Notes: generated from the letters alone by a model not told the origin. A stretch of DNA of 64,000 bases from an uncultured archaeon (GCA_938045545.1 CALIBN010000002.1:1-64000); one strand, 5' to 3'; counted from the first letter of the stretch, positions 15,365 through 22,736 are shown. A program made the numbers and translations.

Positions 15365-16195
15365 ATGGCTCTCGGAGAAAAAGTTATAGCTTTGCAACTG
15401 CTTAAAAAAAGGTTAGGGATGCTCTGGGAATATTTAACAAGCCCCGATATAAAGGAAGTGGCTGAGAAGAAACTCGTCGCGATTCTCCCAGTAGGCTCGG
15501 TCGAGATACATGGACCCCACATGCCGACTGGAACAGACTCCATAACTATTCGCGAGATAACTAGAATGGCCGCTGAAAAGGAGCCTGCAGTAGTTTTGCC
15601 TACGCTATACTATGTTTATGTGCCTGAGAACCGGCATTTTCCTGGAACCATATCGCTAAGCGCTAGGACAATCCTTACTATTCTTGAGGAAATATGCGAC
15701 GAGGTGGCGAGAAACGGTTTTAAAAAAATCCTTATTGTAAACGGTCATGGAGGAAACAATAATCTTCTAAGGGTTTTCCTGAGGGAAAGCCTGCATAAGA
15801 AGAAGGATTATACTATTTACGCGTTAATTGAGCCCTGGTCATCAATAGAAGAGATTGCTGAGAAAATATGCGAGAGCAAGATAACTGGGCATGCTTGCGA
15901 GCGTGAAACCAGCATGGGGCTATACTTGTTTGAAAACCTGATTAAGATGGAGAATGTTAAGCATGAGGCGGAGATAGGAGGTACGAATCTGCCTGGAGTA
16001 GAGACGCCTGCCGACTGGCAGGCCTACGCGGTCCAGCTTTATCTCGGTGACCCTAGGCTGGCAACTAAGGAGAAGGGCAGAATCATGGTTGAAAAGCTTG
16101 TTGATTACGTGGCAGATGCTATAAGAAGGGTTAAGCAGGATGAGAGGGTTCCAGCGATACTCGACGATTTCTACAGGAAGGCCTACGGGCAGTAG
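15365..16195 (+). CDS. Creatininase / mycofactocin MftE-like amidohydrolase (probable start about 15419)
   Basis: PVGSVEIHGPHMPTGTD, NGHGGN, GHACERETS, GDPRLATKEKG. Confidence 0.88.
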   Translation: MALGEKVIALQLLKKRLGMLWEYLTSPDIKEVAEKKLVAILPVGSVEIHGPHMPTGTDSITIREITRMAAEKEPAVVLPTLYYVYVPENRHFPGTISLSARTILTILEEICDEVARNGFKKILIVNGHGGNNNLLRVFLRESLHKKKDYTIYALIEPWSSIEEIAEKICESKITGHACERETSMGLYLFENLIKMENVKHEAEIGGTNLPGVETPADWQAYAVQLYLGDPRLATKEKGRIMVEKLVDYVADAIRRVKQDERVPAILDDFYRKAYGQ

Positions 16196-16221: not shown

Positions 16222-17343
16222 CTAAAACCAGTCTGAGTGCCAGATATGGGGATTTCCTGGTGGAAACAATGTTTCTAAAGTTTTCTCAACCTTCCCCTCA
16301 TGCTTCACGGCTTGGTCGACTAAGACGTTCTTCGGATCCCTATATCCAAGAATGAGTTGCATCAACACCCATTGCGGGAGCTCAACCCAGTTCGCCGACA
16401 AGGTTTCTGAAAGAGACACCCCGGATTCGGAAACTTCGAGAGTAGCAATGCCTATGTCGGTTTTAAAAGATATTTGCGAAGCCAGATCCTTCACACACGC
16501 TTTTTCCAAACGGTCCTCAAATACTGAAACAAGCTTCTCGAAGGTCGACTTGAGATTAATGATTCTCCCCATGCCGTCTGAAGCATATGGATAGTCGATG
16601 CTAATCGTGCAGCCGAGGCTTTTACAAAGCTCGGCGAAAGGATGGTCAAACGGGACGTATATTTCAAGCTCACTAGCCTTCTTCTGGAAAGCAGTGCCGC
16701 ACGCGTAGCGGAGCACATGCTCATACAGGGCAGCGTCTACAGCACCCACCTCAGTTATCCTCATTACCCTCGGCCAACGGTCAGAAGCACAATAGGCAAC
16801 TATCCTTCCAGACTCATCTTCGAAGACTGTTCCGTCAGCAGGTACTCCCCACCAGCTTCCCTTTCTAAATCTGAACCATTCACCCCTATATCTTTTAAGG
16901 GGGCCCGTCCTATGCTCGTTAGCCAACTCGTAAATGTCCAAGATAGCTTCAGCATCGTCCTTCACCATCGGGCGGGCTTTAAGCCCAGGCCTAGCCCTCT
17001 CAGCATTTCTTAAAGGCATGGTTATCTTGCAATTGGGAAGCGTTGAAGCATAACCCCATCTAATATAATAGTCAGGTATGCCGAACAACATTGAAACATC
17101 ATATTCGTTTCTAACCATGTATTCGATAGAAAACTCCATAACCTTTCTAGAATATCCTTTCATCCTGTGTTCCTCGAGCGTTCCAACTCCACCTACTCCG
17201 CCCATTTTCAGGAAGGTTTTCCCAACTTTTACTTCAAGATCATTGATGATGAGCCAGCTAACCGGCGACCCTCCCAGCTCATCCAGAAGAAGCTCAACTC
17301 TATGGGATCTTGCCGAGTCAGTAACCCTTATCTCGCTTCCCAT
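16222..17343 (-). CDS. Eis-like GNAT acetyltransferase
   Basis: GGVGGVGTLEEHRMKGYS acetyl-CoA motif, LFGIPDYYIRWGY, C-terminal SCP2-like domain ending ...WHSDWF. Confidence 0.8.
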   Translation of the reverse strand: MGSEIRVTDSARSHRVELLLDELGGSPVSWLIINDLEVKVGKTFLKMGGVGGVGTLEEHRMKGYSRKVMEFSIEYMVRNEYDVSMLFGIPDYYIRWGYASTLPNCKITMPLRNAERARPGLKARPMVKDDAEAILDIYELANEHRTGPLKRYRGEWFRFRKGSWWGVPADGTVFEDESGRIVAYCASDRWPRVMRITEVGAVDAALYEHVLRYACGTAFQKKASELEIYVPFDHPFAELCKSLGCTISIDYPYASDGMGRIINLKSTFEKLVSVFEDRLEKACVKDLASQISFKTDIGIATLEVSESGVSLSETLSANWVELPQWVLMQLILGYRDPKNVLVDQAVKHEGKVEKTLETLFPPGNPHIWHSDWF

Positions 17344-17390: not shown

Positions 17391-18389
17391 TCATTTGGAC
17401 TCAATATAGTAGAGATCCTGCCTCGGATCCCTTATTAAAGGCCTTTTCTTGACGAAGTTGTTTCCGACAAGTATTGCGAGAGCGTGTCGCACAGTCCTCG
17501 CGGGGAGCATCGTCTTCTTAACAATGTCTTTCTGAGTTAAAGCCCCCTCGTATTCGAGAACCTTCAAAATTAGTTTAGCACTAGGAGGCAGACTGCTTAT
17601 GTCGAGAGACATCCTAGCCTTCTTCTCGAGCCTTCTTGCGAGAAGCGCTTCGCTGAGCCTTACGAAGCCAGCGTCTTCACCCTTCTTAACGACGACCCTG
17701 TCAGTTATCCTCATTCTATACCCCCCATCCACGATTACTTCGCAAGCCGAATTGCTGACTATGTCTCGGATTTCTATGAGGCTTTCAATAGGAGTTACCA
17801 AGGGTCTTCTAGTAAGGTTTAAAGAGTTAACCGGGACTATGCCTACCACCTTGGCTTTCGGATGTATTATTGGTCCTCCTGTCGAAAGAGCATACGCCGT
17901 TGAACCTATGGGCGTGGAAACTATCAGGCCGTCGCCTATATCCCTCCAGACGAACTCGCCGTCAACGTAAAGGCTGTATTCAAGTATTGTGGCACTTTTC
18001 CTCGGGAAGATTGCCAGCTCGTTTAGCGCACACGGTGTTTCAGAATCATCCACAACAGCCTTAAGCCTTGAAGAATACTCCACGCTATACTCTCTTCTTA
18101 GAAAAGCTCTTAAAGCGTCGCCGAGCCTCTCCAGCGTTGTCTCCATCAGGAAACTATTATTCTCAGTCTTGCTAACCCCCAGGATGAGCACATCCCTAGA
18201 TTTCACGTGGTGTAACGCTTTCAGAACATCCTTATCCTCGCCCAAGACAAGGAGAAGACCCTCGTTAAGCTTCTCAAGCTCTTCGAGACGCTTGACGCGC
18301 GTAACCTCCGCCCCGACACGATTAACTGTTCTCAAGCACTCCTTAAGGAGACCATGGTCGAACCCCGCTGGAGCTAACACTATGTTCAA
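17391..18389 (-). CDS. NAD kinase-fold protein with C-terminal winged HTH
   Basis: ALNELAIF and GDGLIVSTPIGSTAYALSTGGP (NAD kinase), GGDG replaced by GEDK; tail LPPSAKLILKVLEYEGALTQKDIVKKTMLPARTVRHALAIL (wHTH). Confidence 0.85.
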   Translation of the reverse strand: MNIVLAPAGFDHGLLKECLRTVNRVGAEVTRVKRLEELEKLNEGLLLVLGEDKDVLKALHHVKSRDVLILGVSKTENNSFLMETTLERLGDALRAFLRREYSVEYSSRLKAVVDDSETPCALNELAIFPRKSATILEYSLYVDGEFVWRDIGDGLIVSTPIGSTAYALSTGGPIIHPKAKVVGIVPVNSLNLTRRPLVTPIESLIEIRDIVSNSACEVIVDGGYRMRITDRVVVKKGEDAGFVRLSEALLARRLEKKARMSLDISSLPPSAKLILKVLEYEGALTQKDIVKKTMLPARTVRHALAILVGNNFVKKRPLIRDPRQDLYYIESK

Positions 18390-18444
18390 CTGGTTTCAGT
18401 AGTGTGTTAGAAGGGCTATTTATTGCTTTCAGCAGTTTAAAAAC

Positions 18445-18521
18445 GTTGCAACTCTATTTTGCCTCTTAATGAAGCACCTATGCAATTATTGCCTTAATAG
18501 AACCCCTTAAATAAGAGGGTT
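18445..18521. promoter_or_regulatory. Divergent promoter region with palindromes between the NADK-HTH gene and nadA
   Basis: GTTGCAAC (18445-52), GCAAT-T-ATTGC (18482-92), AACCCCTT-AAAT-AAGAGGGTT (18501-21) overlapping a TTAAATA box. Confidence 0.45.
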
Positions 18522-18541
18522 TTAGGCTTCAAGAGAAGCTG

Positions 18542-19477
18542 ATGGAAAACCTTAGCCGTAAAATACGGGAAAAGGCGAGAGACATCGGGGCCATAGTATT
18601 AGCCCATAATTATCAGAGGCCTGAGGTGCAGGATGTTGCTGATTTCGTCGGCGACAGCCTGGAACTTTCGGTCAAAGCCATGGAGACCGACGCGAAAACT
18701 ATAGTTTTCGCAGGCGTAGATTTCATGGTTGAGCAGGCGGCTGTGCTGAACCCTAGTAAGACAGTGTTAACGCCTGAGCCAAGCTCCATCTGCCCGATGG
18801 CTTGGCAGCTTGACCCGCCAGTGGTTGAAGAATATCGTAGGAGAAACCCGGATGCACCACTAGTAGTTTACGTGAATTCATTCGTCGAAGTAAAGTCTAT
18901 GGCTGACTACGTGGTTACCAGCAGCAGTGCCTCTAGGCTGGTTTCGAAGCTTGACGCTGGGAAAATCCTTTTCGGACCGGATAGGAATCTAGCGTCCTAC
19001 GTTGCTGAAACCACTGGGAAGGAGGTTATCGCTGTTCCACTTAACAGCTACTGCCCGGTTCACATAGGGATCACACCGGATAAAATATTATCTGTTAAGG
19101 AAAGGATGCCGGATGCGAAGGTACTTGTGCATCCGGAGTGCCCGCCTGAAACAAGGAGGCTGGCGGATTTCGTGGGCAGCACTAGCCAAATAATAAGAGC
19201 AGTGGGAGAGATTGATGCAAAGCGTTTTATAATAGGCACTGAGAACGGGGTGATTCACAGAATTTCAAAGCTTTATTCCGGTAAGGAGGCTTATCCTGTC
19301 AGTAAAGACACGATATGCCCCAACATGAAGAAGATAACGCTTGAAAAAGTATACAGGAGCCTCGTTAGCGGCGAGACTCTTGTAAAGATCGATGAGAAGC
19401 TTGCTGAAAAGGCTAGGAGAGTTCTTGAAAGAAGCTTTACTCTTCTGGGGGTTGAGACACCTTGGTCGAGGAAGTAG
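18542..19477 (+). CDS. nadA: Quinolinate synthase
   Basis: LAHNYQRPEVQDVADFVGDSL, CPMA, YVNS, CPVH, HPEC, GSTSQI, GTE.G, CPNMKKITL. Confidence 0.96.
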   Translation: MENLSRKIREKARDIGAIVLAHNYQRPEVQDVADFVGDSLELSVKAMETDAKTIVFAGVDFMVEQAAVLNPSKTVLTPEPSSICPMAWQLDPPVVEEYRRRNPDAPLVVYVNSFVEVKSMADYVVTSSSASRLVSKLDAGKILFGPDRNLASYVAETTGKEVIAVPLNSYCPVHIGITPDKILSVKERMPDAKVLVHPECPPETRRLADFVGSTSQIIRAVGEIDAKRFIIGTENGVIHRISKLYSGKEAYPVSKDTICPNMKKITLEKVYRSLVSGETLVKIDEKLAEKARRVLERSFTLLGVETPWSRK

Positions 19478-20316
19478 TTTTCAGAAAATTTATCGAGTGG
19501 CTCTCCGAGGATATTCCCTATTGGGACGTGACCTCCGAGATAATACCTCCGCAAGTAACGTGCGAGGCGGTTGTAATAGCTAAGGAGGAGGGCGTTGCAG
19601 CCTGCTGTGAGGATCTTGCTATGATACTTGAGAAGATGGGTTTCACGGTTAGGGTTTTAAAGAAGAGCGGTGAGGAATTCGGAAAATGGGATCAAGTAAT
19701 GTGGATTAAAGGCAATATGCGTAGGCTCATGGAGATCGAACGACTATTGCTGAACATTCTCTCCCAAGCCTTCGGAGTGGCAACGCTAACCAAGGCCTTT
19801 GTCGAGAAGGCTAGAAGAATAAACCCGAACCTGAAGATAGCTGCAACTAGGAAGGTTAAACCCGGCTTCCAGTATTTCGAGAAAAAGGCTATTGCAGCCG
19901 CGGGCGGGGACACTCATAGGCTGAACCTGTCAGACATGATTCTCATCAAGGAAAACCATCTAAAGTATTTCAACTCGGTTGGTGAAGCTGTTAAGAAGGC
20001 TAGGGAACTGGCGAGCTTCAGCAAGAAGATAGAGATCGAAGTGGCTGAGGCTGAGGACGCTGTGGAAGCTGCTGAGGCGGGTGCAGACATAATCATGCTT
20101 GACAATTGCACCCCTGAAAAAGTAAGGAGGACGATTGAAATGCTTAGAGAGAAAGGGTTAAGAAGCAGGGTTCTAGTAGAGGTCTCCGGCGGAGTGAAGC
20201 TTGAAAATCTTGAAGAATATGTGGAAGCCGGCCCGGATATAATAAGCTCAGGAGAGCTAACGCATTCAGCGAAAGCAGTAGACATATCGCTCGAAGTCAC
20301 GAGGGTTGAGAAATGA
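19462..20316 (+). CDS. nadC: Quinolinate phosphoribosyltransferase
   Basis: ED.PYWDVTS, ERLLLN, ATRK, EK.A...GG..HR.NLSDMILIKENH, IMLDN, EVSGG. Confidence 0.96.
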   Translation: MVEEVVFRKFIEWLSEDIPYWDVTSEIIPPQVTCEAVVIAKEEGVAACCEDLAMILEKMGFTVRVLKKSGEEFGKWDQVMWIKGNMRRLMEIERLLLNILSQAFGVATLTKAFVEKARRINPNLKIAATRKVKPGFQYFEKKAIAAAGGDTHRLNLSDMILIKENHLKYFNSVGEAVKKARELASFSKKIEIEVAEAEDAVEAAEAGADIIMLDNCTPEKVRRTIEMLREKGLRSRVLVEVSGGVKLENLEEYVEAGPDIISSGELTHSAKAVDISLEVTRVEK

Positions 20317-21098
20317 AGAGGATAGGGTTGATAGGGTGTGGTGCAATAGGCTCCCTCATAGCCACGGCTGTGGACGAGGGCAAGGTTAACGCGAAGCTGG
20401 TTTATGTCTACGATTCTCGTAAGGAGGCTGCATCGAAGCTGGTTGAGAAGCTGAGGAGCAAGCCGAAGGTTCTGGAAGGAATAGAGGAGATGTTGAAAGA
20501 CAGGAGGCTCGAAGTTATCGTCGAGGCTGCAAGCGACGAGGCCGTTCTAAAATACCTTAAGCCCATCGTTGAAGCCGGGAAAGAGGTTCTCGTGATGAGC
20601 ATAGGAGGGCTTCTTTTCCCTGAGACAAGGAAAATATATGAGGAAAACACTCGCAGAATACATGTTCCGGCTGGAGCAATCGCTGGACTGGATGCTATCC
20701 AAGCCATAAGCCTAGTCGGCGTGGACAGGATGGTTTTAACCACGAGGAAGCCTCCGGAAGCATTAGCCTATTCCAACTATTTCAAGGAGAAGGGGATTGA
20801 ACTAGATAAAATCAGGGAGCCCACGCTGGTTTACGAGGGGCCCGTGGAAGACGCTTTAACGCATTTCCCAAAAAGCGTGAACGTGGCGGCAGCGCTAGCC
20901 TTATACTCTAAGTCAGGGGTTCTAGTTAGAATAATAGCAGACCCAACCAGGAAAGAGATAATGCACGAGATAGATGTTGAGTCAAAGGTTTCCAATCTAA
21001 GGATACTGGTTGAGAATGTTCCGCACCCGGATAACCCTAAGACAAGCTATCTGGCTGCATTATCCTGTATTCAGAAGCTTAGAGAGATTTGTGGCTGA
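20313..21098 (+). CDS. nadX: L-aspartate dehydrogenase
   Basis: GLIGCGAIG, VEAAS, GAIAGLD, TTRKPP, FPKSVNVAA, HEI, NPKTSYLAALS; overlaps the nadC stop (ATGA). Confidence 0.93.
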   Translation: MKRIGLIGCGAIGSLIATAVDEGKVNAKLVYVYDSRKEAASKLVEKLRSKPKVLEGIEEMLKDRRLEVIVEAASDEAVLKYLKPIVEAGKEVLVMSIGGLLFPETRKIYEENTRRIHVPAGAIAGLDAIQAISLVGVDRMVLTTRKPPEALAYSNYFKEKGIELDKIREPTLVYEGPVEDALTHFPKSVNVAAALALYSKSGVLVRIIADPTRKEIMHEIDVESKVSNLRILVENVPHPDNPKTSYLAALSCIQKLREICG

Positions 21099-21152: not shown

Positions 21153-22736
21153 TTGAGAAAGATTCTCGAAAGCCGAGAAGAGATAGTTATGGGTAATAAT
21201 GCGGTTAAAGTCTATGTTCTAGACCCTGCTTCAATACTTACCGGAGTGGCTGCTAGAGCAGTTGAAAACGGTGAGGTAACTGGGAGGATAATAGTGCATA
21301 AGGCCATTGTCTCGGAATTCGAGAGAAAAGCCAGATTCGGCGATGAAACAGGGTTAAATGGCTTAAAATCCCTTAAGGACGCAGCTTCGGAGAAAGGGCT
21401 GGAGGTCGAGTTTATAGGCTCTTCCAATACTCCCGAAGAGGTTTCAACAGTTCTCAGAGATCTAGCGATGAACACAAGAGGCACTCTCGTTTCATGCGAC
21501 CCGGTTTTGACTAAGACTGCAAGAGCAATGGGGATTGAGGCAATCTACCTAAGCCCGGTTGGAAAGGCTAAGCTTGAAGAGTTCTTTAAACCAGGCATAA
21601 TGTCTATACATCTCAAGGAGAACGTTATCCCGAAGGCTAAGGAAGGGATTCCTGGCAGATGGGTTTACAGAGATGTTGGAGAGAAACCAATCAGTAAGTC
21701 TGAGCTTGAGTCAATAATAGCTGACATAATGGAGAGAGTCCAGTTTACAAACCAAGGCTTTGTGGAAATAGACAAGTCTGGCTCGACAATAATACAGCTT
21801 AAAGACCTTAGGATAGTCATTACTCGACCACCCTTCTCAGACGGGCTTGAAATAACCGCTGTTAAACCACTCATTAAGAGAAGCCTTGAGGAGTATAATT
21901 TGGAGGTAAAGCTTATTGAGAGGCTTAAGACTCAGGCTGAAGGAATACTCATAGCTGGGGCACCTGGAATGGGAAAGTCCACTTTCGCCCAAGCCCTGGC
22001 AGAGTTCTACAGGTCGATGAACAAGGTTGTTAAAACAATAGAAAGTCCGAGAGACCTTCAACTCCCTCCTGACGTGACACAGTATTCTAAGACAGCAGCA
22101 GAGCCCAGTGAGCTTCACGACGTATTACTGTTAAGCAGACCGGACTACACGATATACGATGAGCTTAGAGATACTAATGACTTCAACATTTTCATAGACC
22201 TTAGGCTTGCGGGCATAGGAATGGTCGGCGTCATACATGCTACAACACCCATGGATGCTATTCAACGCTTCACCGGGAGGACTGACCTTGGGCTCATACC
22301 CTCTATCATAGACACAGTCATATTTATGAAGGAGGGCGAGGTTTCGAAAATATACACGCTTGAAACAGTTGTGAAGATCCCTAAGGGAATGAGAAACGCG
22401 GACCTAGCTAGGCCGACGATAGTCGTTAAAAACTTCTTGACGGGGGAGGCGGAGTACGAGCTCTACGTCTTCGGAGAACAAACTTTCATAGTCCCGGTTC
22501 GCAAGAAGAAGACAGGATATGAAGAGAAGCTTAAGGAGGAAGTGCAGGCGATAGTGCGCAACCAGGTTTCAGACTTCGACGTCAGGATTGAGGGAGACAG
22601 TTTGATCCTGTATGTAAATAAGGAGGACATCCCCACACTCGTCAAGAAGTACAATAAGAAGCTCAACAGGTTTGCGAAAAGAATAAACATGAACATTGAG
22701 ATAAGCCCACAGAATAGGCATGAAAACAAATACTGA
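21153..22736 (+). CDS. PIN-domain ATPase with KH tail (archaeal PINA family)
   Basis: N-terminal PIN-like domain, MSIHLKE, RPPFSDGLEITAVKP, Walker A GAPGMGKST, ESPRDL, RPDYTIYDE, GVIHAT. Confidence 0.9.
   Translation: MRKILESREEIVMGNNAVKVYVLDPASILTGVAARAVENGEVTGRIIVHKAIVSEFERKARFGDETGLNGLKSLKDAASEKGLEVEFIGSSNTPEEVSTVLRDLAMNTRGTLVSCDPVLTKTARAMGIEAIYLSPVGKAKLEEFFKPGIMSIHLKENVIPKAKEGIPGRWVYRDVGEKPISKSELESIIADIMERVQFTNQGFVEIDKSGSTIIQLKDLRIVITRPPFSDGLEITAVKPLIKRSLEEYNLEVKLIERLKTQAEGILIAGAPGMGKSTFAQALAEFYRSMNKVVKTIESPRDLQLPPDVTQYSKTAAEPSELHDVLLLSRPDYTIYDELRDTNDFNIFIDLRLAGIGMVGVIHATTPMDAIQRFTGRTDLGLIPSIIDTVIFMKEGEVSKIYTLETVVKIPKGMRNADLARPTIVVKNFLTGEAEYELYVFGEQTFIVPVRKKKTGYEEKLKEEVQAIVRNQVSDFDVRIEGDSLILYVNKEDIPTLVKKYNKKLNRFAKRINMNIEISPQNRHENKY

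Follow-up and report, generated by a model that had tools for sequence, protein, structure and literature searches.

What does a protein built like an NAD kinase and ending in a DNA-binding domain do beside the genes for NAD synthesis? This question is raised by a 64,000-nucleotide stretch of DNA from an uncultured archaeon (GCA_938045545.1, CALIBN010000002.1:1-64000; hereafter the window), in which a gene on the minus strand encodes an NAD kinase (NADK) fold with a degenerate GGDG motif, fused to a helix-turn-helix domain of the winged type (wHTH), and is transcribed divergently from nadA-nadC-nadX. The initial annotation had proposed that this fusion protein regulates the three nad genes, and the proposal is supported by the presence of a separate NADK in the genome, by the linkage of the fusion gene to nad genes, and by a palindrome that is found at nadA promoters only in genomes carrying the fusion. 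From comparison of these sequences, the fusion is probably a transcription factor that arose from a duplicated NADK, senses NAD(P) and acts on NAD synthesis and precursor uptake.

The fusion protein combines an NAD kinase fold with a winged helix

The gene and its recognisable parts are the following:

17391-18389, minus strand: NADK-fold/wHTH fusion gene, proposed NAD regulator; an open reading frame (ORF) of 332 amino acids (aa), described with Pfam, an AlphaFold2 model and Foldseek
18228-18242, minus strand: codons for GEDKD (residues 50-54), the degenerate GGDG(T) loop located by alignments; the Asp is kept and both inner Gly are lost
17685-18026, minus strand: NAD_kinase_C domain, residues 122-235 (PF20143, E 4.5e-27, 94.7-97 bits, cut-off 23.7), with the NE motif and DGLIVSTPIGSTAYALSTGGP
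17406-17591, minus strand: C-terminal wHTH, residues ~267-328 (Pfam HTH_9/MarR-like matches and the model), with PPSAKLILKVLEYEG...RTVRHAL...RDPRQ

The ORF begins with TTG, and the same start point is used in homologues. A two-domain NADK fold was recovered in the AlphaFold2 model, for which 25 family members served as input (mean pLDDT 85.8), and the top Foldseek matches in the PDB were exclusively NAD kinases (E down to 2.4e-24, TM scores of 0.77-0.86 normalised to the target), with both NADK domains covered. By sequence, the solved NADK of Pseudomonas aeruginosa was matched at E 7e-25. The NAD_kinase_C part, with its NE motif and DGLIVSTPIGSTAYALSTGGP, is presumed to be the NAD(P)-binding sensor part. 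On the model of the N-terminal NADK domain (PF01513) the fusion scores 17.6 bits, under the cut-off of 25.5, compared to 46 bits for the stand-alone NADK of the same genome, and all eighteen NCBIfam NADK models fall under their cut-offs (the best, NF002984, with 140.9 bits against 326). As the protein lacks GGDG and scores under the cut-offs of both PF01513 and the NCBIfam models, it was filed as an NADK-fold paralogue rather than as a member of the NAD kinase family.

Conservation in the fusion protein is highest in the tail (PPSAK..RTVR..RDxRQ). Pfam matches over residues ~267-323 include HTH_9, with 24.7 bits just over its cut-off of 23.4, whereas MarR (18.3 bits, cut-off 24.6), MarR_2 (19.0 bits, cut-off 27) and TFIIE_alpha stay below theirs, so that the tail is not assigned to the MarR family (PF01047/PF12802). 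In the model it forms three helices (269-281, 286-293 and 297-309) and a two-strand wing; the wHTH core alone is present, and the NADK body takes the place of the flanking MarR dimerisation helices. A tail profile of 26 sequences matched, in the PDB, the archaeal wHTH regulators 2D1H and 1SFX, as well as Lrp/AsnC-type HTH, TFE and MarR proteins. The C-terminal wHTH of about 65 aa that had been read on an NADK fold is thus borne out by Pfam, the model and the tail profile, and structure modelling, which had been suggested as a check, returned both parts (AlphaFold2, Foldseek).

The nucleotide pocket is kept and the glycine loop is lost

Alignments also agree with the motif readings of the initial annotation, namely that the NE motif and GDGLIVSTPxGSTAYxLSxGGP are kept, that GEDKD replaces GGDG(T) and that ENNSFL replaces GxLGFL. 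GEDKD is aligned to GGDGT in the genome's stand-alone NADK and to GGDGS in the P. aeruginosa enzyme of known structure, and in the alignment with both NADKs SKTENNSFL occupies the place of the canonical Gly-rich G-x-L-G-F/Y-L stretch. N123-E124 and region II, DGLIVSTPIGSTAYALSTGGP (residues 153-173), are intact, and the corresponding columns are invariant or nearly so among 25 aligned fusions.

A motif census of 120 homologues, every one with the PPS[AS]K signature of the wHTH, identified GGDGT in none and GGDG in one. The first Gly and the Asp of the loop are invariant except in one gapped row, and the fourth position is occupied by Lys or Arg in 99 homologues, Ser in nine, Gly in eight, and another residue or a gap in four. 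For comparison, the available text of PMC8553519 gives GGDGT in 124 of 127 archaeal NADKs. Retention of the NAD pocket together with loss of the glycine loop favours a ligand-binding sensor, short of proving that catalysis is lost; we rate the chance that kinase activity has disappeared as slightly better than even.

An old paralogue in addition to a canonical NAD kinase

The genome of origin (2.03 Mb, 92% complete) was checked for a separate canonical GGDG NADK, and one of 268 aa is encoded on contig C9, with GGDGT, G-Y-L, NE and a complete region II. Of 401 sampled genomes of the phylum (Thermoproteota), 145 have the fusion (145 best places, one per genome), with matches that run through the wHTH to residue 308 or beyond; Asgard metagenome-assembled genomes (MAGs) also carry it. 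Most of these 145 genomes have a second, shorter NADK match. Eight genomes with a single match were checked with PF20143, which revealed further paralogues in seven and none in G363 (91% complete). In an earlier contig search, fusions had made up 12 of the 80 loci retrieved (L007-L018), the rest being dominated by canonical NADKs.

In a maximum-likelihood tree of 51 NADK domains, all fusions (26 labelled rows and two rows of genus g38) fall on one side of a branch with support of 100/99, and the stand-alone NADKs of archaea and bacteria, those from the same genomes included, fall on the other. A group of four members, two of them source-labelled Thorarchaeota, is sister to the remaining fusions, among which the Njordarchaeia-labelled members are nested; both placements indicate that the fusion is old. 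By this sequence phylogeny, the fusion family is an ancient monophyletic NADK paralogue. One genus relative (G047:C13:26592-27581, locus L100) has an in-frame TAA within the fusion gene and may represent a pseudogene or an assembly error.

Linkage to the genes for de novo NAD synthesis

Three genes lie on the other side of the intergenic region:

18542-19477, plus strand: nadA, quinolinate synthase (PF02445, 345 bits; NF006878, 370 bits, cut-off 294)
19462-20316, plus strand: nadC, quinolinate phosphoribosyltransferase (TIGR00078, 293 bits, cut-off 198)
20313-21098, plus strand: nadX, L-aspartate dehydrogenase (TIGR03855, 214 bits, cut-off 206.6; PF01958, PF03447)

Their ends overlap, and for this reason they are read as one operon. 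The fusion gene and nadA stand head-to-head with a gap of 152 bp (18390-18541), and coordinates and domain scores agree with what had been described as a fusion gene divergent from a complete de novo NAD operon.

The neighbourhoods of homologues were surveyed by tblastn with the NadA, NadC and NadX of the window over 81 fusion-gene loci. A divergent nadA(-nadC-nadX) adjoins the fusion gene in all 12 genus relatives with enough flanking sequence, and a thirteenth locus (L095) stops at the contig edge. Beyond the genus, a divergent nadA(-nadC) lies beside the fusion gene in L013 (a Thorarchaeota MAG, nadA only), L017 (a Thermofilaceae MAG), L139, L140, L141, L151 and L152; in L147 nadA is found 1.5 kb from the fusion gene, and in L154 the fusion gene is located directly upstream of nadA-nadC-nadX on the same strand. 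The survey, which the initial annotation had named as a check, thus found nad linkage in at least seven further lineages, and the recurrence of the head-to-head layout in the genus and in several other families indicates that it is not due to chance.

In most sampled lineages the fusion gene is not beside nad genes. In Nitrososphaeria-type loci it has genes for a PfkB-like kinase and CTP synthase as well as trpAB as neighbours, and the neighbours at other unlinked loci include major facilitator superfamily (MFS) transporters of the aromatic-acid/H+ symporter type, an ATP-binding cassette (ABC) transporter with a Peripla_BP_6 binding protein, and an amino-acid permease. In some groups the fusion is present and nadA was not found at E 1e-20 (five of seven genomes in genus g21, four of four in g32 and 14 of 14 in family f31). 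Its presence without nadA in g32 and in all of f31 suggests that the regulator also persists in apparent NAD-precursor auxotrophs. In the sample of family f21, the fusion and nadA are mutually exclusive, with four g32 genomes having the fusion only and 11 genomes of other genera having nadA only.

A conserved palindrome upstream of nadA

The intergenic region contains the following elements:

18481-18493, unstranded: proposed operator palindrome TGCAAT-T-ATTGCC (TGCAATTATTGCC), ending 13 nt upstream of the nadA TATA box
18457-18463, unstranded: half-site-like block TTTTGCC, 18 nt upstream of the palindrome
18499-18514, plus strand: presumed transcription factor B recognition element (BRE) and TATA box of nadA, AGAACCCC-TTAAATAA (AGAACCCCTTAAATAA)
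18417-18424, minus strand: presumed TATA box of the regulator gene, AATAAATA, read from the sequence, 28 nt from the start codon, with columns partly invariant in the genus

When the 152-bp region was aligned for 13 genus members (mean identity 74%), three conserved blocks with at most two variable positions each emerged: TTTTGCC, the palindrome and the BRE/TATA block. Eleven of the 13 palindrome positions are invariant among the 13 genus relatives, and the remaining two vary in two and one of the 13, respectively. TTTTGCC is present in all 13 sequences with variable surroundings, and is a possible auxiliary contact. The BRE/TATA assignment for nadA follows the general layout of archaeal promoters; 15 of its 16 positions are invariant in the genus and one differs in a single sequence (1/13). 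As the ATG of nadA lies 28 nt past the TATA box, the mRNA would be nearly leaderless. A TATA-like box at the same offset from the palindrome is found in L017, L139, L147, L152, L120 and L122.

The family consensus of this 13-bp element, GGCAAT-N-ATTGCC, was seen in nadA-proximal intergenic regions of seven separate lineages; in family f14 the half-site has GACA in place of GGCA. A weight matrix was built from six sites of other lineages, with the window's own site left out; the latter scores 17.35 bits on it, a value not attained anywhere else in the 2.03-Mb genome. In this genome 17 sites score at least 13 bits, four of which are intergenic; the other sites at this threshold adjoin genes without a Pfam family or a gene for a zinc-ribbon protein, and a wider regulon was not found. 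A different inverted repeat (18462-18474/18506-18518), which straddles the TATA box, was also considered as operator, and was rejected because its left arm is not conserved in the genus.

The proposed operator co-occurs with the fusion gene across genomes

Co-occurrence was examined on nadA and its 3-kb flanks from 40 genomes, a hit being a site that scores 13 bits or more in the 200 bp upstream of nadA. In twenty of these genomes the fusion gene lies at another place on the chromosome (families f5, f56, f58, f18 and f14), and twenty are without it (families f15, f35, f32, f59, f3, f43, f12, f19, f17, f30, f26 and f40). A site upstream of nadA was present in 16 of the 20 unlinked fusion genomes versus none of the 20 fusion-less genomes; as a background, 1.3% of 2000 random 210-bp windows from the same loci reached 13 bits.

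Among five complete genomes of five genera, the perfect palindrome is single-copy in four, where it precedes the nadA Pfam match by 108-120 bp. In the fifth (G068, 4.3 Mb), two copies in a duplicated element occur besides the one at nadA, and the reversed pattern, used as a control, does not occur in any of the five. The extra palindromes of G068 (contig C4, loci L213 and L214, at ~140174 and ~924991) lie beside ORFs of 128 aa and 85 aa in what appears to be an inverted duplicate of a small element; at 4.3 Mb this assembly is more than twice the usual size in its family.

In nadA-less lineages the motif occurs in a promoter region common to the fusion gene and a transporter gene. The transporter is an MFS protein in L122 (15.1 bits) and L125 (17.6 bits), and in L120 the motif (15.3 bits) lies between the fusion gene and the gene of an ABC binding protein; in L018, a 12.6-bit site is located directly upstream of a co-directional MFS gene. 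In both L120 and L122 the site ends 12-13 nt ahead of a TATAATAAAT box, a spacing as in the window, and a weaker second site 25-30 bp further upstream recalls the window's TTTTGCC block. For the MFS neighbours, the better matches are to the aromatic-acid/H+ symporter subfamily and the weaker ones to SV2-type proteins; NiaP niacin transporters, which we take to be near these MFS proteins, provide a lead only.

Proposed function

The NADK fold would serve as sensor and oligomerisation module, and the C-terminal winged helix as the DNA binder. NADKs form dimers and tetramers, and a dimer of the fusion protein, or two dimers of an NADK-type tetramer, could sit on the palindrome via a pair of wHTH domains. 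According to the available text of PMC8553519, the NAD site of NADK needs the dimer. A pyridine dinucleotide (NAD+, NADH, NADP+ or NADPH) bound in the conserved NADK pocket would set DNA affinity and operator occupancy, so that expression of nadA-nadC-nadX would be adjusted to the NAD(P) pool, and with it that of the regulator's own gene, which shares the 152-bp promoter region. No consistent site was found before the fusion gene where it is unlinked, and autoregulation is therefore proposed for the divergent layout only. The output would be feedback control of de novo synthesis and precursor uptake, with NADP supply left to the separate canonical NADK.

In the window's genus and in family f31, the proposed operator directly adjoins the presumed BRE, and there the bound protein could interfere with TFB and block access of TFB and TBP. 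Ligand-dependent repression is accordingly our best guess from the position of the site, with a slight edge only, because the site lies upstream of the TATA box, and is shifted in Nitrososphaeria-type loci, in an activator-like position. It may be speculated that the Lys or Arg in the former glycine loop contacts a phosphate of the ligand. A bolder picture, which we hold tentatively and would not expect to stand in all its parts, is that of an ancient pseudo-kinase predating the split of Thermoproteota and Asgard archaea, whose G-x-D-[K/R]-x pocket would hold NAD(P)(H) without turnover, with the Lys/Arg possibly reading the 2'-phosphate (a sensor of NADP or of the NAD/NADP ratio), and whose tetramer would bridge the main and the auxiliary operator with its two wHTH pairs, so that a third of Thermoproteota, marine ammonia-oxidising archaea included, would have it as master regulator of their NAD supply.

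Points against and rival explanations

Several observations weigh against a role as NAD-responsive regulator of nadA, or against the mechanism proposed for it. The support consists of comparative genomics throughout. Four of the 20 unlinked genomes miss a good site: L166 and L171 have sites of 11.6 and 9.8 bits, and L173 (g21) and L174 (g38) have none. The 16 positive genomes are akin, 13 belonging to family f5 and the others to f56, f58 and f14, and this relatedness means that the counts overstate independence; even so, other lineages supplied the sites for the matrix, and the intergenic sequence around the motif has diverged. Genera g61 and g32 show degenerate sites only beside the fusion gene. 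Compared with the window, the distance between site and TATA box is ~45 nt larger in Nitrososphaeria-type loci, and because of this shift one mechanism may not fit all lineages. Furthermore, sites upstream of BRE/TATA are more typical of archaeal activators than of repressors. Finally, mutagenesis of Mycobacterium tuberculosis Ppnk identified as vital the Asp of GGDG, the Asn-Glu pair, and the Thr and Tyr of region II (available text of PMC8553519). Equivalents of all of these occur in the fusion, namely D52, N123-E124 and, in region II, the Thr and Tyr; the fusion protein could therefore still be an enzyme.

This last point leads to the alternative to which we give most weight, although we consider it unlikely: a bifunctional "trigger enzyme" in the manner of RbkR, the archaeal regulator of riboflavin genes, that is, a working NADK which also regulates transcription, the occupancy of its active site by substrate or product setting DNA binding. 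The residues vital in Ppnk are invariant or nearly so in the family, a whole two-domain NADK fold is predicted with confidence, and RbkR offers a precedent in the same archaeal groups (available text of PMC5397151). These arguments are opposed by the absence of GGDG in 119 of the 120 homologues and the Lys/Arg at the fourth position in 99, by the erosion of the G-x-L-G-F-L stretch in the window's genus, and by the scores under cut-off for PF01513 and all NCBIfam NADK equivalogs. A stand-alone NADK moreover accompanies the fusion in nearly all genomes, whereas RbkR is the sole riboflavin kinase (RibK) in 96 of the 119 genomes counted in the available text of PMC5397151. Far less credible is an ordinary NADK with a divergent motif, in which the C-terminal extension would be a structural or oligomerisation add-on with no DNA-binding role. 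Public annotations of family members do read "NAD(+)/NADH kinase", "ATP-NAD kinase" or "sugar kinase", but no other part of the protein is conserved as well as the tail, which adopts a wHTH fold of three helices and a wing in the model and has DNA-binding regulators as its PDB matches, and a matching palindrome co-occurs with it; we regard this explanation as scarcely tenable.

The palindrome could also be bound by another factor, the fusion serving an unrelated purpose, for instance as a regulator of redox genes or of nucleotide genes or as an enzyme tethered to DNA, with its adjacency to nadA being a lineage-specific accident. The mostly unlinked position of the fusion gene, next to PfkB-type kinase, CTP synthase and trpAB genes, and its occurrence in the nadA-less genomes of g21, g32 and f31 would fit such an accident. 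It would leave unexplained why 16 of 20 genomes with the fusion, and none of 20 without it, have the motif before nadA, why separate families and an Asgard MAG share the divergent pairing with nadA, and why in nadA-less lineages the motif sits at the promoter common to the fusion and a transporter gene; we consider this very improbable. A transcription factor of NADK descent that senses NAD(P) is therefore the reading we prefer.

If it is correct, the fusion fills a gap in the regulation of archaeal NAD synthesis for a large part of Thermoproteota and some Asgard lineages, including Nitrosopumilus-type ammonia oxidisers, in which the perfect operator is single-copy and located at nadA. The NAD-kinase fold would become one of the few enzyme folds that transcription factors have taken over for sensing metabolites. 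The widespread annotation as NAD kinase or sugar kinase would be corrected, as metabolic reconstruction could otherwise miscount the fusion as an NADP-forming enzyme. Operator, target genes and candidate ligands are all explicit, which makes the hypothesis directly testable.

Other genes in the neighbourhood

Downstream of the regulator gene, the window encodes a 373-aa GNAT acetyltransferase (Acetyltransf_9; 16222-17343, minus strand) and a creatininase-family amidohydrolase (15365-16195, plus strand), for neither of which a link to NAD metabolism was seen in Pfam. Directly after nadX (21153-22736, plus strand), a 527-aa ORF combines an ATPase core of the T2SSE/PilT type (Walker A region, residues ~254-374) with a long N-terminal extension that matches no Pfam family.

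In Nitrososphaeria-type genomes (L008-L012, L127-L135, L143, L144 and L156), a gene for a 290-aa PfkB-like kinase nearly always lies on the same strand ~30 bp before the fusion gene (17 loci) and is a possible operon partner; a convergent CTP synthase gene comes after the fusion gene (19 loci). In the Nitrososphaeria-type genome G020, a stand-alone GGDGT NADK of 274 aa (L159:734-1558) is located beside nadC (1758-2576) and a nadA-nadX pair, with the fusion elsewhere on the chromosome. Three neighbours that had been considered as NAD-related were rejected: the 149-aa cytidylyltransferase-like protein in L138, taken as a candidate nicotinamide mononucleotide adenylyltransferase (NMNAT), is a phosphopantetheine adenylyltransferase; the phosphoribosyltransferase in L126 is an adenine phosphoribosyltransferase; and the isochorismatase in L148, a candidate nicotinamidase, matches RutB/biuret hydrolase better.

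Comparison with known systems

The bacterial regulators NadR, NiaR and NrtR control nadA, nadB and nadC as well as niacin-transporter genes, and each joins a DNA-binding domain with an enzyme-derived or ligand-binding domain (available text of PMC2330246). NrtR resembles the fusion further in using a catalytically degenerate Nudix domain as sensor and in that nrtR is often divergent from nadA (same source). All three differ in being bacterial, in their operators and in having no relationship to the fusion in sequence or fold; no NMNAT/RNK, 3H or Nudix domain is among the Pfam or NCBIfam matches of the fusion. Canonical NADKs (P. aeruginosa 7QVS/7MH7, M. tuberculosis 1U0T and Archaeoglobus fulgidus 1SUW) share with it the two-domain fold, the NE/D motif and region II, whereas the fusion has G-x-D-[KR]-x in place of GGDG(T), carries the extra wHTH of ~65 aa and forms a separate clade. 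Full-text searches of the literature, most subscription journals and supplements aside, turned up neither an NADK-HTH regulator nor any factor for an archaeal NAD regulon, and the available part of a survey of archaeal fusion proteins (PMC11237513) describes none either.

In logic and host range, the nearest analogue is, by this comparison, RbkR, which regulates riboflavin genes in Crenarchaeota, Euryarchaeota and Thaumarchaeota (Rodionova et al. 2017, available text of PMC5397151). It is likewise an archaeal regulator of a cofactor pathway in which a MarR-like wHTH is fused to a kinase of the same pathway, and it was discovered by gene linkage and by palindromic sites at pathway and transporter genes (same source). 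For the fusion, too, palindromic candidate sites lie before pathway and transporter genes and co-occur with the regulator. The differences, as far as the same text describes RbkR, are that it has a CTP-dependent RibK fold with an N-terminal wHTH, and the fusion an NADK fold with a C-terminal wHTH, and that RbkR is active and usually the cell's only riboflavin kinase, whereas the fusion has a degenerate GGDG loop and is accompanied by a separate canonical NADK. The fusion proteins are probably a new family of metabolite-sensing transcription factor, of a general kind that is already known.

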